A stretch of 59,294 nt of DNA, taken from the NCBI GenBank assembly GCA_964465575.1, contig CAYXIF010000003.1, positions 52,296 to 111,589 on the forward strand, read 5' to 3'. The first letter of the stretch is position 1, and every line of letters starts with the position of its first letter. Made by a program: the position numbers and the translations under genes. Below the pieces are notes generated by a model, which worked only from the letters and a program-made list of their open reading frames with translations, searched no databases and was not told the DNA's origin. This DNA comes from an uncultured Candidatus Bathyarchaeia archaeon. Its GTDB lineage: Archaea > Thermoproteota > Bathyarchaeia > Bathyarchaeales > DTEX01. Positions 13,154-58,830 of the stretch are shown here, piece by piece.

Positions 13154-13228
13154 GGGCCGGTAGTTCAGTTTGGCATGAACGCCTGACTTGCACTCAGGAG
13201 GCCGGGGGTTCAAATCCCCCCCGGTCCA
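13154..13228 (+). tRNA. tRNA-Ala: tRNA-Ala(UGC)
   Basis: Complete cloverleaf, anticodon TGC at 13189-13191, G3:U70 alanine identity pair, A73. Confidence 0.95.
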
Positions 13229-13329
13229 CTTAAGCCGGATCCCTTGTGAGTAATGTTTCTTTGGTGGGTTGTGTTTGGTAAGAGTTAAGTATAACTTTAG
13301 TATCATTCAATGTAACAATGGTGATTTCA

Positions 13330-13524
13330 ATGGCTTTGGTTAAGACGCGGAAAGTAGGCGGCTCATTAGTAGTCACGTTACCGAAGGAGCTTGTGGAAAG
13401 CAAGAAAATCAAAGAAGGCGAAATTCTGGAAATAGCCGTGCGGAAAGTGAGGAAAGACGGTTTTGGCATTCTCAGGGGGATGAAGCCTTTCACGGTTGAA
13501 GACGAGTTGGCTGCTCATGAATGA
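13330..13524 (+). CDS. vapB: AbrB/MazE/SpoVT-type antitoxin
   Basis: KTRKVGGSLVVTLPKELVESKKIKEGE swapped-hairpin motif; overlaps the PIN gene. Confidence 0.85.
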   Translation: MALVKTRKVGGSLVVTLPKELVESKKIKEGEILEIAVRKVRKDGFGILRGMKPFTVEDELAAHE

Positions 13525-13909
13525 GAGATACATCATAGACGCCTATGCTTGGATTGAGTATCTCATTGGGAGCGAGCCGGGCATAAGTGTCAAGGCCATT
13601 CTAGAGGATGAGAGTAACGACATTTTCACGTGCGCAGTGACGGTTGCGGAGGTCGTGAGCAAGACTATTCGAGAAGGGCGGAACGCTGAAACTGCCTATA
13701 GCATTCTGACTGGCAACTCGGTCATCATCGACATTGACAGCGAGATCTCAAGAGATGCAGGCGTATTGCACGCTGATATGCGGAAGACTAGGAAAGATTC
13801 CGGGCTGTCGGACGCTTACGTGTTAGCTGCATCGAGAATTAATGGGTCAAAGATACTGACAGGAGACCCCCACTTTCAAGGCATACAAAATGCTATCCTA
13901 GTTAAATAA
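13517..13909 (+). CDS. vapC: PIN-domain toxin (VapC)
   Basis: IIDAYAWIEY, VAEV, LSDAYVLA, LTGDPHF acidic tetrad. Confidence 0.9.
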   Translation: MNERYIIDAYAWIEYLIGSEPGISVKAILEDESNDIFTCAVTVAEVVSKTIREGRNAETAYSILTGNSVIIDIDSEISRDAGVLHADMRKTRKDSGLSDAYVLAASRINGSKILTGDPHFQGIQNAILVK

Positions 13910-15365: not shown

Positions 15366-15505
15366 ACCTTTTCTTACCTTTTCATGCCTTTTTCTACCTT
15401 TTTTTACCTTTTTCTACCTTTTCCTACCGTCTGCTAAGCTGAAAAGAAACCCCTTTTCCCAAAAACAACCCATTTCAGGCTTGAAAAAGAAACAAATTTT
15501 TCCTG
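15366..15505 (+). repeat. Dispersed element copy 1: six 10-bp units (ACCTTTTYHT-like), a degenerate seventh and a conserved flank
   Basis: ACCTTTTCTT, ACCTTTTCAT, GCCTTTTTCT, ACCTTTTTTT, ACCTTTTTCT, ACCTTTTCCT, ACCGTCTGCT; homologous to 57647-57766 inverted. Confidence 0.85.
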
Positions 15506-51914: not shown

Positions 51915-51954
51915 GGTGAACCGAAAAGTTGAGGGAGTGGACGCAAAGGAGAAC

Positions 51955-52719
51955 ATGAAGCTAATCGTTTCAATGGGCAGGGGAGGCTGCGGGAAAACAA
52001 GCTTCGTAGCACTTCTGACGAAGTTTTTCGTCGATGTCGGCGAAACGCCCCTGCTTCTGATAGACGCTGATCCAGACCAGAACTTGGCTGAAACAGTAGG
52101 TGTAGACCTAGAAACAGAAGAGAAGAACACGATCTCTGAGATGGTTGTCGAGACCTTCTTGGAAAAGAGAGGCACAACCGTCGGAGTTCCACCCGCAGAA
52201 AGGATAGAGAGCAAGATCTGGGAGAGATGCCTCTATGAGGGTGAGTTCTTTGATCTGATTGCGATTGGACCGAAGTGGGTTGAGGGCTGCTACTGCCTCG
52301 CAAACGCGGCACTGAAGAAAGCTTTGGAGAACATAACCAAAGCCTACAAGAAGATCGTAGTGGACTCCCCGGCGGGATTGGAGCAGTTGAACAGGAGAAT
52401 CACTTCGAGGGTGGATGACATCTTCGACATCATAGATCCCTCAAAGAAGTCCTTTGATCACGTGAACAGGGCTTTCAGAATCGCGAAGGAAGTTAAGATA
52501 GATTTCCGCAACTTCTACGTGGTTGGGGGATACAGGTTCCCCGAAACCTTGGAAGGCGAGGTCAAGAAGAGAACCAATCTTGAGTACGTGGGGAAGATAG
52601 CCTACGACGAGAACGTCGAGCGGTTCGTGCTGTCTGGCAAATCTCTGCTCGGCCTTCCAGCTTCGTCATCTGCCTATGAATCCGTGGTACGAATCTTGAA
52701 GAAAGTCAGGTATGTTTAG
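51955..52719 (+). CDS. cooC: CooC/AcsF-type nickel insertion ATPase
   Basis: GRGGCGKTS, IDADPDQNL, GCYC, DSPAGLEQLNR. Confidence 0.88.
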   Translation: MKLIVSMGRGGCGKTSFVALLTKFFVDVGETPLLLIDADPDQNLAETVGVDLETEEKNTISEMVVETFLEKRGTTVGVPPAERIESKIWERCLYEGEFFDLIAIGPKWVEGCYCLANAALKKALENITKAYKKIVVDSPAGLEQLNRRITSRVDDIFDIIDPSKKSFDHVNRAFRIAKEVKIDFRNFYVVGGYRFPETLEGEVKKRTNLEYVGKIAYDENVERFVLSGKSLLGLPASSSAYESVVRILKKVRYV

Positions 52720-52782
52720 AACTTTTTCTTATCGTTAAGATGGCCGAGACCAAGCGCGCTAAGCCCAAAGTTGACATGAAGT

Positions 52783-53298
52783 GTGCTGGAAGGCTTTTGG
52801 ATCTTGTCTAGCCGAGAAGCGAACCGAGATATCTTCAAGATGCTTCGCAGAGCAGCCGAGAAGAGGAGGCAGGAAAAGGCTAGACTGCTTGAATCACTCG
52901 GTGTAACTGAGTACTTCAATGACGGAACGATAAGAATCGAGAGAGAGACCTGCGAAGGCATTGAGTGCGGTTTGTGCATCAAGACCTGCCCAACGAACGC
53001 TCTCTACTGGGCATACGGCGAGGTGAAGATAATCGAGGACCTGTGCATATACTGTGCAGCATGTGTTCTCTGCTGCATTGTCGACAAGTGCATAGTCATA
53101 GCTAGAAGGCGAACAGACGGTACCGTAGAAACTTTCAGCACCCCAGCTGAAGTGCGCAGACTCTTGACAAGCATAAGCTCCAAGAGAAGAGTGGACGCCA
53201 TGAAACATCGGTTCCAGAGTATGGAGACATACTTGGAAAAGGCACTATCGGATAAGGATCAAGTGTTTATTGTTAGACCGATACTGAGGAGTGGCTAG
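52783..53298 (+). CDS. 2x[4Fe-4S] ferredoxin-domain protein
   Basis: CEGIECGLCIKTCP and CIYCAACVLCC. Confidence 0.85.
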   Translation: MLEGFWILSSREANRDIFKMLRRAAEKRRQEKARLLESLGVTEYFNDGTIRIERETCEGIECGLCIKTCPTNALYWAYGEVKIIEDLCIYCAACVLCCIVDKCIVIARRRTDGTVETFSTPAEVRRLLTSISSKRRVDAMKHRFQSMETYLEKALSDKDQVFIVRPILRSG

Positions 53299-53300
53299 TT

Positions 53301-54158
53301 TTGAAGATCGCTGTAGCTGGGAAAGGTGGTGTAGGCAAGACCTTTATTGCGGGGACGCTTGCCCGCCTTCTTTCGAGGGATGGGTACAGAGTACTTGCTG
53401 TCGATGCTGATCCCGCCATGAACTTGGCTTTTGCATTGGGCGTCCCATCTGCTGTGGCCTCAAGAATCGTCCCGATAACAGAGAATAAAGAACTCATTGA
53501 AGAGCGCACTGGCGCTCGTCAGCGATCGGGCTTCAGCATGTTCATCAATCTCACGCCAACAGTAGATGACATTGCTGAGAGATACGGGGTAATGGCACAT
53601 GACGGTGTTCGGCTCCTCGTCTTGGGAACGGTGCGTTCAGGCGGGTCAGGCTGCATGTGTCCAGCGAATGCCTTGATACGCGCCTTGATTAGACACATCA
53701 CCTTGATGGAGGGAGATGCCGTGGTCATGGACATGGAAGCCGGGCTCGAGCATTTGGGAAGAGCGACAGTGCGAGGTTTTGACGCATTGCTGTGCGTTGT
53801 CGACCCTGGCGCCCAGTCGATAGAGACCGCTGCCAGAATCACACGTTTGGCTAACGAGATAGGTGTCAAGGAGGTTTTGGTCGTGGCCAACAAGACCACG
53901 ACTGAAGAAGACGAGAGATTCATCGAAGCCTCTTTGAGCAGTATAGGATTGAACTTGGTATGCTCAGTTCCGTTTGATAAGAATATCATTCGCGCTGAGG
54001 CTCTAAGGGTAGCGCCGTTGGACTATGCCTCCTCATCACCTGCAATCTTGGCAATCAAGGAACTTGAACGAATTCTCAAGCAAAAAACCTTAAGGACGGT
54101 TCCGTCTAGTAGCGGTCCAAACCGGAAGTATGAAGAAAGGTCAGGCGTGCGCAAGTGA
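53301..54158 (+). CDS. cooC: CooC nickel insertion ATPase
   Basis: GKGGVGKT, VDADP, GCMCP, DMEAGLEHLGR. Confidence 0.93.
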   Translation: MKIAVAGKGGVGKTFIAGTLARLLSRDGYRVLAVDADPAMNLAFALGVPSAVASRIVPITENKELIEERTGARQRSGFSMFINLTPTVDDIAERYGVMAHDGVRLLVLGTVRSGGSGCMCPANALIRALIRHITLMEGDAVVMDMEAGLEHLGRATVRGFDALLCVVDPGAQSIETAARITRLANEIGVKEVLVVANKTTTEEDERFIEASLSSIGLNLVCSVPFDKNIIRAEALRVAPLDYASSSPAILAIKELERILKQKTLRTVPSSSGPNRKYEERSGVRK

Positions 54159-54991: not shown

Positions 54992-57472
54992 CTATGGCAG
55001 ATTGAGGGACGCTGTGTAGCTTTCCTCATCTTGGCGTTTCAGGTTGAACCCTCTCTTGTGGCAGAGATGGATCATTTTGGTGTTTTCGGCTAGCACCTCT
55101 CCGAAGACTTTTTTCAAGCCCATGTCCGTGCCTACTTCTATTATGTTGTCAAGCATCTTCGTTCCGAGGCCAAGTCCCTGCCACGGGTCTCCTATGACTA
55201 TGGCGATTTCGCCACTTTCACCGTCGGGTTGCACTATCAACCTAGCCAAGCCCATGATATGCTTGGTATCTTCTGGCGTTTCTGCCACGATAGTGATCTC
55301 CCTGTCGTAATCTATGTTGCATAGACGGGAAACTATTTCGTGAGAGAACGTTTTCATTATGTGGAAGAAGCCTAACCTGATTGTTTCCTTAGAGAATGTC
55401 TTGAAAAGCTTCACCATAAATGGCTCATCTTCGGGTCTAGCTGGGCGTAGGCAGACATGGCCTTCATCTCTCAATGTCGCCCCAGTGACATATTTGGCCG
55501 GGTATGGCCTAATCGCCAAGTGTTCGTAAGGTTTTGTGCCTTGCTTAGCTTTCTCAATGTCCACGGTTATTTGCCCGTCCAAAGCTACAACTCCTTCTTT
55601 TGAGGCGACTAAGGGGTTCAGTTCAATTGTAGTGAGGTCTGGGAAGTCGACAACCATTTGCGAGAAATGGACAAGAAGCGTCTCCAAAGCTTTGAGGTTG
55701 GCCAAGGATCCAGCTCCTTGTTCGGTGAGTAGTCGGCAGATCCTTGTTCTTTCCATCAGCCTTCTCGCCAAGGTTTGATTGAGTGGGGGAAGCTCGACAG
55801 AGAGGTCCTGTATGATCTCGTAGCCTGGTCCTCCCATCCCGAAGGCTATGACTGCGCCAAAGAGTGGGTCCCTTTTGGAACGGACGGCCAGGGGACAGCA
55901 CTCCTTTCCGATGAGGGTTAACAAAGATTTGCCTTGGTCTCCGAAGGAGTCGGCGACGGGCATTCCGTATGCTTTCAGGAAGAATCCCACTTCATTCTTT
56001 GTCGTGCTGTGACGTTCTTCAAGAGCCATGTTCGTCAGAATCTTTCTGAGAGAACTTCTGTCAGCCGGCACCGTGAGCGCGATCTCTTCCGGCGTCTCGT
56101 ACATCAGTTCAAGGTTCTGAGCGTATTCGTAGGTGTGCATGAAGGCTGAAACGGCCTGTTCGGGTGTCAAGTATGTAGGCACCATGTTCCGGCGCAGCTG
56201 TTCCCTTGCCTCTCGGACATCTTCTTCGCCCATCCATGAAGTAAGAATCGGCTTGCGCATGTCCCTCGAGACATCAATGAGGACCTTTGCGGCTTCATTC
56301 GGGTTCATCAGAACCTGGGGGGTATAAATGATGATGAACCCATCGGCGTTCGGTTCTTTGAAGCAGATTTCCAAGGTTCTCTGGAATCTGTCACTCGTCG
56401 CATCATCGCAAATGTCAACAGGGTTCGACCTGCTCCAGTAGGGGGGTAGGACCTCGGTCAAGGCTTTGACGGTTCCTTCACTCAGAGGCAGTAGACTTCC
56501 TCCCCTTGAGACGAGGAAGTCCGTGGCTATCACCCCAGGACCACCTCCATTTGTGATAATCACTAGGCGCCGTCCCTTAGGGATTGGCTGCATCTCAAGA
56601 ATCTCTGCGCAACTGAACAGATCAGCAATCTCTTCTACACGTACAACTCCGACTCTTCTGAAGGCCGCACTGTATATCGAGTCCTCGCCTGTTGGGGTGC
56701 CTGTGTGAAGCGTAGCCGCTTTCGTTCCTTCGGGGGATGCGCCAGCTTTCATGACGATTATGGGTTTGGTTCCGGCGAACCTTCGGGCGGCGCTCATGAA
56801 CCTTCTTGCATCACTTATGGACTCGATGAAGAGTAGTATGCTTCGGGTTTCAGGGTCAGCACCGAAGTAGTCAATCAGATCGGCGAAATCTACATCCAGC
56901 ATAGACCCAACCGAGACGAAGTGACTGAAACCGATATTGGCTTGAACGGCCCAGTCAAGGATCGATGAGCAGAGTGAGCCGCTTTGGGAGATGAATGCGA
57001 TTTTGCCCGGCTTTGCCATCTTACCTGAGAAGGTGGCGTTCAGACTGATACTCGGGCGCATGACCCCCAGACAGTTTGGGCCTATAATCCTCATGTTGTA
57101 TGCGTGCCTAGTTTTCTGGATCTCTTCCTCTAGGGCTCTGCCTTCGCTTCCTGTCTCCTTGAAGCCTGAAGATATTACTATGATGCCTGGTATTCCGGAC
57201 TCTCCGCACTCCTCAACTATCTGGGAGACTACATGAGCTGGCGTGGCTATGATGGCTAGATCTACTTGCCAAGGTATTTTCTTGACGCTTGGGTAGGCTG
57301 TTACGCCCTGGATACAGGGGCTAAAGGGGTTGATGGGGTAGACGAAGCCTTTGAACCCGACCCCGATGAGGTTTTTGAGGAGCCTGTAGCCGACTGAGAC
57401 TTCATTGTTGCTGGCGCCGATGACTGCGATCCTCTTTGGGTTGAAAATCTTGTCCAGATTTTCGATGCCCAC
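54992..57472 (-). CDS. ADP-forming acetate-CoA ligase-like (CoA-binding + ligase + shortened ATP-grasp) fused to GNAT acetyltransferase (Pat/YfiQ type)
   Basis: AVIGAS, IGPNCLG, SQSG, LHTG, TNGGGPG, NPVDI; C-terminal WQGLGLG GNAT motif A. Confidence 0.9.
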   Translation of the reverse strand: MGIENLDKIFNPKRIAVIGASNNEVSVGYRLLKNLIGVGFKGFVYPINPFSPCIQGVTAYPSVKKIPWQVDLAIIATPAHVVSQIVEECGESGIPGIIVISSGFKETGSEGRALEEEIQKTRHAYNMRIIGPNCLGVMRPSISLNATFSGKMAKPGKIAFISQSGSLCSSILDWAVQANIGFSHFVSVGSMLDVDFADLIDYFGADPETRSILLFIESISDARRFMSAARRFAGTKPIIVMKAGASPEGTKAATLHTGTPTGEDSIYSAAFRRVGVVRVEEIADLFSCAEILEMQPIPKGRRLVIITNGGGPGVIATDFLVSRGGSLLPLSEGTVKALTEVLPPYWSRSNPVDICDDATSDRFQRTLEICFKEPNADGFIIIYTPQVLMNPNEAAKVLIDVSRDMRKPILTSWMGEEDVREAREQLRRNMVPTYLTPEQAVSAFMHTYEYAQNLELMYETPEEIALTVPADRSSLRKILTNMALEERHSTTKNEVGFFLKAYGMPVADSFGDQGKSLLTLIGKECCPLAVRSKRDPLFGAVIAFGMGGPGYEIIQDLSVELPPLNQTLARRLMERTRICRLLTEQGAGSLANLKALETLLVHFSQMVVDFPDLTTIELNPLVASKEGVVALDGQITVDIEKAKQGTKPYEHLAIRPYPAKYVTGATLRDEGHVCLRPARPEDEPFMVKLFKTFSKETIRLGFFHIMKTFSHEIVSRLCNIDYDREITIVAETPEDTKHIMGLARLIVQPDGESGEIAIVIGDPWQGLGLGTKMLDNIIEVGTDMGLKKVFGEVLAENTKMIHLCHKRGFNLKRQDEESYTASLNLP

Positions 57473-57646: not shown

Positions 57647-57766
57647 GAGGAAAATTTGCGGAAATTTCTGAGTCTGTTTCGGGTTGCTTCTAGGAAACTG
57701 AGCCCATTTTTGGCTAATCAAACGGTAGAAAAAGGTATGAAAAGGTAAGAAAAGGTAGAAAAAGGT
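57647..57766 (-). repeat. Dispersed element copy 2 (four 10-bp units, a degenerate fifth and the flank), inverted relative to copy 1
   Basis: Reverse complement reads ACCTTTTTCT ACCTTTTCTT ACCTTTTCAT ACCTTTTTCT ACCGTTTGAT, then a flank matching 15426-15505. Confidence 0.85.
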
Positions 57767-58466: not shown

Positions 58467-58830
58467 CTAGATGGGCAGGGTCCACATCGAGTTTATGATA
58501 AGTGATATGGATACGCTTACTGTTATGGCGATGCTTTCGCCCATTGCAAGTCCTCCCGCCGCGAGCCGGGAGTAGGAACCCCACCTTTCCTTGCCTATTC
58601 TCCTCTCTACAGCCTTTGTTGTTATTCCACCTATGAGGAAAGCTAGAGAGTACGGCGGCAAAACCCCAATTCCCGCGGCGATTCCGACATAGGATAGCGG
58701 AAGGCTTGGAACGTGTATTGCTAGGTATAAACCTGTTCCGATAATCAGGGAGTAGAGTATCCAAAGCGGATCAAAGAGCCCTGTCCCAGCCTATCCTGGT
58801 AGGCGACTGGAAATTGCCCAAATGGCTCAA
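58467..58830 (-). pseudogene. C-terminal fragment of an OPT-like transporter, paralog of 31447-33345
   Basis: TGLFDPLWILYSL...GVLPPYSLAFLIGG...WGSYSRLAAGGLAMGESI...SMWTLPI aligns by eye with TGYLFRPTWMY...LMPPW...GDGLV...STWLMPY; in-frame TAG at 58791-58793. Confidence 0.75.

Follow-up and report, generated by a model that had tools for sequence, protein, structure and literature searches.

The stretch of DNA analysed here (59,294 nucleotides from an uncultured archaeon of the Bathyarchaeia, hereafter the window) carries two copies of a non-coding element in inverted orientation, 42 kb apart. Bathyarchaeia are among the most abundant uncultured archaea of sediments and peat, and their non-coding DNA is to our knowledge almost uncharacterised. 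Roughly 2 kb ahead of copy 1, a tRNA-Ala gene is followed by a PIN-domain gene and then by RHS fragments (13154-13909), a region that looks like a decayed integration or accessory patch. An RHS remnant at 14362-14808 matches RHS_repeat with an E-value of 1.2e-6. Some 700 nt upstream of copy 2, and on the same strand, an open frame at 58467-58790 (minus strand) matches only the last ~65 positions of the OPT profile (E 8.9e-5, under Pfam's cutoff); this C-terminal OPT stretch is probably a pseudogene remnant. The first-pass annotation had described both copies as bordering decayed DNA, a description that the RHS remnant bears out and the OPT remnant supports weakly.

The interval between the copies (15.5-57.6 kb) is housekeeping in character. 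It encodes RtcB, an ERCC4 nuclease, a SAM hydroxide adenosyltransferase, an FtsX/OPT module, a complete cdh CODH/ACS cluster, DUF166 and an aminotransferase, and the CbiA/ParA-type genes at 51916-54158 are part of the cdh cluster. A bifunctional ADP-forming acetyl-CoA synthetase/GNAT protein of 826 aa is encoded at 54992-57472 (minus strand). Its homologues measure ~850-920 aa, the nearest non-identical one is only 60% identical and many matches extend over only ~62% of the protein; the window protein may be a truncated or fast-evolving copy. Most window genes are without an obvious oligo-T terminator. The two elements comprise the following features:

15366..15425, plus strand: copy 1 array, six units of exactly 10 bp, ACCTTTTYNT type
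15426..15479, plus strand: copy 1 junction unit ACCGTCTGCT and G-poor core (core-only nhmmer profile, E 3e-06)
15483..15503, plus strand: copy 1 T-rich box region GAAAAAGAAACAAATTTTTCC, its T5 run beginning 26 nt past CAACCC
57727..57766, minus strand: copy 2 array, four units of exactly 10 bp
57673..57726, minus strand: copy 2 junction unit ACCGTTTGAT and G-poor core
57649..57668, minus strand: copy 2 T-rich box region GAAATTTCCGCAAATTTTCC, its T4 run beginning 26 nt past CAACCC

The six units of copy 1 are, in order, ACCTTTTCTT, ACCTTTTCAT, GCCTTTTTCT, ACCTTTTTTT, ACCTTTTTCT and ACCTTTTCCT, with T-runs of 4, 4, 5, 7, 5 and 4 nucleotides, followed by a degenerate seventh unit at 15426-15435 (ACCGTCTGCT). 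On the minus strand, copy 2 reads ACCTTTTTCT, ACCTTTTCTT, ACCTTTTCAT and ACCTTTTTCT (57766-57727) and ends in a degenerate fifth unit (ACCGTTTGAT), the whole array spanning 57766-57717 (minus strand). CAACCC lies exactly 37 nt past the 'ACC' of the junction unit in copy 1 (15466-15471) and likewise in copy 2 (57686-57681, minus strand). A whole-element nhmmer profile matches 15386-15499 with an E-value of 7.4e-19 and 57766-57655 with 3.7e-18. The T-box region of copy 1 contains a weak A-U hairpin, which is not significant.

Two strict 10-bp arrays of 6+1 and 4+1 units, inverted and 42 kb apart, had been noted before, and both the coordinates and a pattern count confirm them. Allowing up to two mismatches, a two-unit pattern has 10 matches in the 59-kb window, all within the two arrays; the chance expectation is 0.05, and 10 matches were reached in 0 of 100 shuffles. 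Nowhere else in the 59-kb window are T4+ tracts clustered as densely as in the arrays, and the sole other cluster of four such tracts (at ~38.4 kb) is not an array. For the adjacent 80 nt, the earlier manual count of 48/80 ungapped identities is exactly right. Composition does not explain this similarity: dinucleotide shuffles of the 80-nt flanks gave 22.0 +/- 4.3 identities with a maximum of 40, and 48 was reached in none of 20,000. Pattern count and flank shuffles together rule out a chance or compositional artefact. Coding potential is ruled out as well, and we regard the element as non-coding, because the 10-bp unit and the 1-nt indels between the copies exclude coding.

For this pair we reject the suggestion that such a copy might form one end of a non-autonomous mobile element, given that the interval is a housekeeping one and encodes no transposase; specifically, it holds no gene for a DDE transposase, an integrase or Cas1. 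Moreover, the cdh-ACS linkage also occurs in L088, a relative without the element, and interval content and this linkage exclude that the two copies delimit a 42-kb mobile element. Element boundaries were set by comparing paralogous copies with unrelated flanks. At these boundaries no terminal inverted repeats were found beyond a 5-6-nt TTTAG/CTAAA resemblance, a check for target-site duplications showed none, and no transposase or integrase lies near the copies. Copy 2 is not the promoter of the downstream ACS-GNAT gene either, since a canonical TATA of its own precedes the start of this gene by ~55 nt and four orthologous ACS loci of other lineages (85 kb in total) are without a copy.

A family of mosaic interspersed elements

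Both window stretches are diverged members of one family of mosaic interspersed non-coding elements of 150-290 bp. When one genome per prokaryotic species was scanned with three consecutive units as the query, 44 loci were returned, mostly unrelated T-rich repeats and many from Bacteroidota. Two Bathyarchaeia MAG loci among them (L025 and L042) are laid out like the window, with the array followed by a CA-rich segment and by CAACCC 37-38 nt past the last unit. A metagenome scan with two units, 34-41 nt and CAACCC as the query gave 41 loci, of which ~30 are true members from peat, wetland and sediment. The ~30 metagenome and MAG loci form ~20 independent groups, and nhmmer E-values across family members range from 1e-34 to 1e-11. 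A profile built from the metagenome loci also finds second copies in L060 and L077, in which the unit is TACTTTCCNN instead of ACCTTTTNNN and the core is unchanged. Member contigs span 37-51% G+C, and three of them carry archaeal 16S or 23S rRNA genes. The window copies are the most diverged members, keeping the array, the 37-nt spacing, CAACCC and the T-box and little else. Among 2.9 million viral contigs (IMG/VR) there is no true copy, the lone match (L090) being a chance match within a phage ORF; with 0 true IMG/VR matches, a viral or plasmid origin is ruled out. No description of the family was found in Rfam or in the literature searched, and it is apparently undescribed. The idea of an unannotated dispersed non-coding cis element thus holds, with ~30 Bathyarchaeia-type relatives and an orthologue of copy 2 in L074; the opposite case, a pair with no other copies, does not apply because relatives exist.

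Copies share a common order of parts: a subfamily-specific upstream module, the 10-bp array, the G-poor core and the T-rich box. The upstream module is 40-105 nt long and varies between subfamilies, most of which have a (W)TTTAG motif 30-46 bp before the array. The array itself consists of 2-9 direct units of exactly 10 bp (ACCTTTTNNN, elsewhere TACTTTCCNN), each with an A/T tract, and the motif common to the arrays is ACYTTT. T-runs are 4 to 8 long, yet the 10-bp register is kept, with two off-length units only, and the Fourier power of the A/T tracts peaks at 9.75-10 bp. These are direct repeats at the helical period, as in iteron and partition-site arrays. The last unit is conserved (ACCTTTTCTAGCC). 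Next comes the core of ~50 nt (CCTCAACCTGCAACCAATTCAAGCCCTAAACCAAAAAAGCAACCCAAAACA), whose 3' half is nearly invariant and ends in the AACCAAAAAAGCAACCCAAAAC box; CAACCC and a few flanking bases are what survives of this box in the window copies. From the last unit to CAACCC the distance is 37 nt, occasionally 36 or 38, and the window copies keep the 37-nt spacing though their cores are only ~60% identical to each other.

Nearly all main-family copies have a core A-run of at least 4, and the core complement GUUUUGGGUUGCUUUUUUGG has a T4-T8 run plus, in most copies, a T3-T4 run. The T-rich box occurs as CTATTTAC, CACTTTTTAC or CATTTTAAC. It lies 34-37 nt past CAACCC in most copies, 39 in one, 47 in one and 26 in both window copies, the 26-nt and 47-nt classes being made up of very few loci. 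The A/T tracts of the core are offset by about a quarter turn from the array phase and have weak power; a continuous planar bend through array and core was rejected on this account. There is no dyad symmetry around CAACCC. An integron attC site or a CRISPR leader was also discarded, as the element has no imperfect inverted repeat and no CRISPR-type repeats follow downstream. The family is mosaic because upstream and downstream modules occur in differing combinations between subfamilies.

The family is under constraint. An orthologue of copy 2, with five array units versus four, is present in L074, a relative showing 92.8% identity across 1.43 kb. Over the ~105 nt that run from the core to ~50 nt beyond the T-box, the two orthologues differ by 2 mismatches, where ~7.6 would be expected, and the ~95 nt upstream of the array are only ~82% identical. 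Copies residing in one genome or contig are 60-85% identical (L052 versus L061; the L060 pair; the window pair), and this low identity therefore indicates no recent burst. The 23-nt box and the spacings have nevertheless been retained in lineages with 37-51% G+C. Four DNA runs containing the window's organism gave identical contigs without unit-number polymorphism, and population-level variation in unit number was accordingly not seen in those runs. The comparison at 57722-57766 yielded a third array from DNA runs X1, X2 and X6 (contigs of 217-318 nt, depth 3.5-6). Its flanks differ (...AGACTTTGTTAAGGGCTGGGGTGGCCGAGA), and the window's organism or a close relative in the same sediments therefore has a further copy.

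Copies were found between genes only. Both neighbours are known for ~18 independent copies: seven contexts are divergent, five convergent, four tandem sense and two tandem antisense, so that a gene 3' end faces the element in 11 of the ~18. The orientation of copies relative to their neighbours is indistinguishable from random. One of ~20 copies lies directly behind a tRNA gene and three have an rRNA gene no more than 2 kb away, an enrichment over chance that amounts to no rule. An rRNA promoter was rejected, since in L068 the 23S leader RNA starts ~25 nt after the canonical TTATATTA (800-807), ~250 nt downstream of the element. The genes downstream of copies are functionally unrelated, and on this ground both a promoter serving the neighbours and the operator of a one-pathway regulon were rejected. 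Flanks are often accessory or decayed (PIN, RHS remnant, OPT remnant, HNH, MNT-HEPN pairs, DNA methylase), and gene order differs on one side of orthologous copies. L077 (1-1608) reads element, operon, element and next HEPN gene, with tandem MNT-HEPN (nucleotidyltransferase/HepT) toxin-antitoxin operons; there, an element lies between the stop codon of one operon and the TATA box of the next, an arrangement that resembles a cassette array. A small membrane-protein gene stands between two direct copies in L060. Among annotated neighbours no par, rep or orc gene lies beside copies; no Rep, ParB/ParR or RHH gene lies beside either window copy, and none recurs across loci.

Divergently upstream of one subfamily we observed a small conserved protein of 71-103 aa without a Pfam match (...KELTPLKQAIRELA...GPLIDLAVLLSKIVRTYEHKGI...), which adjoins an N6/N4 DNA methylase in two loci. 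The loci of the small conserved protein and methylase are:

L068:46-357, minus strand
L052:1172-1387
L071:1709-1924
L085:2869-3165
L066:2174-3523

At the RNA level, 12 folds (six elements, both strands) had z-scores mostly between +1 and +1.9, with 10 of the 12 at z >= 0. The folds are less stable than shuffles, and the element is therefore not a folded RNA. The hairpin of a pyrimidine run and a purine run after the core has a mean z of -0.14 over 26 copies, which is not significant, and Rfam gave no match at the gathering threshold or at E<=5. The earlier suggestion of a structured RNA is thus unsupported, and fold z-scores, Rfam and hairpin z together rule out a known RNA family or structured RNA. 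Antisense pairing with rRNA was likewise dismissed (z about 0). The core does occur inside ~10 distinct metatranscriptome contigs (92-549 nt, depth 2-20) from three runs of one study, unstranded assemblies that define no RNA ends and in which DNA carry-over is possible. Upstream of the core these contigs continue for 35-360 nt, arrays included, and downstream of it for 11-280 nt; they extend past the core both ways, and therefore no discrete small RNA is visible. Their arrays are varied and include GACTTTT and CACAAAT units, the latter at the loose ends of two RNA contigs and not fitting ACYTTT. Apart from possible DNA carry-over, the element is then not transcriptionally silent everywhere. 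The window's own copies were in no RNA run searched, and L061 had no coverage in the peat RNA runs.

Possible functions of the element

Four readings fit these data about equally well, and we tentatively place a nucleoprotein site at the DNA level first. On this reading, which we hold to be possible rather than probable, the element would be a mosaic interspersed repeat whose helically phased DNA serves as a binding site for protein. Within this comparison, a protein-binding DNA site is most likely when set against a folded RNA or a transposon end, and a protein site of the nucleoid, partition or replication type is our preferred class of explanation. The exact 10-bp unit, the exact 37-nt spacer and the T-box at steps of about a helical turn are most simply accounted for by proteins on defined helix faces, and an invariant 23-mer that is not palindromic likewise requires a sequence-specific reader. 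DNA is bent by A-tracts that are phased at the helical repeat. A sequence-specific protein might thus recognise the invariant box, while the phased A/T tracts would bend the DNA and offer repeated contacts on the same face, with ACYTTT once per turn. Box and array could together build a cooperative nucleoprotein complex whose size would vary with the number of units, and whose role might be architectural (as a boundary) or regulatory. Whatever the primary role, the T-tracts of the array on one strand and the T4-8 run in the core complement should in addition halt archaeal RNA polymerase arriving from either direction. The family could have spread by module duplication and recombination, like bacterial BOX or BIME repeats.

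Several points speak against a protein-binding DNA site. We found no cognate protein and no consistently adjacent gene, and the recurrence of the small protein and the methylase is limited to one subfamily. The 10-bp length may have been inherited via slippage and unequal crossing-over, and G-depletion of one strand over >100 nt is also typical of unstructured RNA or of an archaeal terminator (PMC13675443). Furthermore, the core tracts are out of the array phase, the CACAAAT arrays do not fit ACYTTT, and the core is found in metatranscriptome contigs, so that a role at the RNA level is possible.

Alternatively, the element could be a two-faced cassette for transcription stop or insulation. Its 2-9 consecutive U4-U7 tracts on the array strand would terminate archaeal RNA polymerase and bind aCPSF1/FttA, and on the other strand the core complement would supply a U4-U8 run, mostly with a shorter second U-run; as a whole we consider this rather unlikely. 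Both strands carry such tracts, and any entering polymerase should therefore stop. High-efficacy terminators of M. maripaludis are enriched in sequences with at least two U4 tracts, and the smallest ligand that aCPSF1 binds efficiently has two U4 tracts within 18 nt (PMC8716108). G-depletion and a high U content characterise archaeal terminators, which often follow one another (PMC13675443). Each copy has at least two T4+ tracts in a G-depleted context, as expected of U-tract terminators, for which two or more U4 tracts within ~20-30 nt were taken as the mark, and the near-universal core A-run fits as well. The first minus-strand T-runs after the EamA stop codon fall inside copy 1, and the L077 element fills the space from stop codon to TATA box between tandem operons. 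The proximity to rRNA genes (three of ~20 loci) and the one position directly behind a tRNA also suit a stop. However, the seven divergent contexts of ~18, above the 25% random expectation, offer nothing to terminate, and positions outside the T-runs (CAACCC, GCAACC, CCTCAACCTGCAACC) are conserved as well as the T-runs. At 37 gene ends of the window, the 100 nt behind the stop codons show hardly any enrichment of T4+ tracts (0.38 versus a background of 0.24 per 100 nt). On these three grounds termination is unlikely to be the whole story. Neither does termination need a strict 10-bp register; RNA contigs span array and core, and CACAAAT-type arrays are without U-tracts.

That RNA contigs contain the core at all leads to another doubtful candidate, an unstructured small RNA gene or gene family. 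The array would then be DNA upstream of a promoter, the conserved junction TTTTCTAG|CC would lie near the start and the T-box would be the 3' end, with the invariant 23-mer of the core serving as a single-stranded seed or as a site for an Sm-like (U/A-binding) protein or aCPSF1. An orientation independent of the neighbours and a core that is nearly invariant and unstructured, like sRNA seeds, agree with this, and the upstream (W)TTTAG resembles the tail of the TATA of the L068 23S promoter (TTATATTAGCG). It is at odds, however, with the lack of a discrete small RNA among the RNA contigs, whose ends are not defined, and with the absence of the canonical BRE/TATA of related contigs (GAAAG-TTTAATAT). 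A transcript begun upstream of the array should terminate inside it, the T-box offers no more than U3-U5 behind a non-significant hairpin, complementarity to rRNA is unremarkable, and the window copies occur in no RNA run searched. A selfish or neutral mosaic repeat of the MITE or BOX kind, with no host function, strikes us as about equally unlikely. The element would be conserved only insofar as a trans-acting recombinase or transposase requires its core and subterminal repeats, and copies would be points of recombination. Flanks that are unrelated directly outside the 150-290 bp unit, modules shuffled between subfamilies, unit numbers that differ between close relatives, surroundings rich in accessory or decayed genes, the small cassettes flanked by two direct copies in L060 and L077, and the altered gene order on one side of orthologous copies would all be in line with such a repeat. 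Terminal inverted repeats, target-site duplications and a nearby transposase or integrase were nonetheless not seen, nor was any true match in the viral contigs. Co-resident copies are old (60-85% identical), yet the 23-mer and the spacings are kept, and the comparison with L074 shows a core better conserved than its surroundings.

As a more specific form of the protein-binding DNA site, the copies could be archaeal chromosomal boundary or insulator sites, on which a dedicated protein nucleates at the CAACCC box and polymerises along the curved array; we regard this as improbable. Such a protein would block transcription, and possibly the spreading of histones or supercoils, from both sides, and copies would preferentially sit beside rRNA genes and blocks of accessory genes. 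Related to this is the alternative that the transcribed U-tract and CA-rich segment may be a decoy titrating aCPSF1/FttA or an Sm-like protein.

Whichever reading applies, the element is compact and alignable, and its unit of exactly 10 bp, constant 37-nt spacer, T-box at steps of one helical turn and invariant 23-nt box offer a handle for finding a new archaeal DNA- or RNA-binding factor. A boundary or insulator site, if true, would add a new kind of signal for chromosome organisation in archaea. A selfish repeat, if true, would still mark rearrangement points and caution annotation, because spurious ORFs of 60-117 aa run through the element.

Comparison with known systems

BOX of Streptococcus pneumoniae (boxA-boxB(n)-boxC) and the enterobacterial BIME/REP elements are dispersed, intergenic and modular, have a tandem module of variable number, are passively transcribed and have a debated function. 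They come closest to the present family in form, sharing its intergenic dispersal, mosaic modules and internal module of variable copy number. However, BOX and BIME are built on palindromes and stem-loops, whereas the element described here is without palindromic units or a stable predicted fold. Their tandem units far exceed 10 bp and lack helical phasing, and they are bacterial, whereas the present element is archaeal, with a phased unit of 10 bp. It also differs by its G-poor core with the invariant 23-mer, and we know of no RAYT-like gene for it.

Prokaryotic MITEs such as SM1-SM4 of Sulfolobus are similarly small, non-coding, dispersed and transposase-less. Unlike them, the family shows neither terminal inverted repeats nor target duplications, consists of old, diverged copies and is without an autonomous partner. 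Archaeal oligo-U terminators likewise have at least two U4 tracts and G-depletion and need no hairpin (PMC8716108), the element carrying its U-tracts on both strands. In contrast to such terminators, it forms a homologous family with conserved non-T positions and fixed spacings and lies in divergent promoter regions too.

The genome scan also brought to light a separate dispersed family in Bacteroidota, with 3-8 units of 10 bp (TATACCTTTT, TATACCC variants) and a conserved tail (...TTTTCATAATAAA...GATAATCA...AAGTATAATAA...TTATACCCT), which looks like an analogous array-plus-core repeat. Its loci are:

L001, L002, L007, L009, L011, L017, L019, L028, L034, L035, L041: Bacteroidota arrays, at least 11 in MAG AM_bin-0098
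L003, L010, L022, L024: further arrays of the Bacteroidota type

The closest systems in presumed mechanism are iteron and centromere-like arrays and tandem RHH operators (R1 parC, the pSM19035 omega heptads, the SSV1 F55 sites), which small DNA-binding proteins occupy cooperatively. Each of these sits on one replicon beside the par, rep or repressor gene that belongs to it, whereas the element is scattered over the chromosome among unrelated neighbours and no cognate gene was found. Nonetheless, both consist of short direct repeats of about one helical turn, variable in number and placed beside a specific site, and by analogy cooperative binding on one face would be expected of both.
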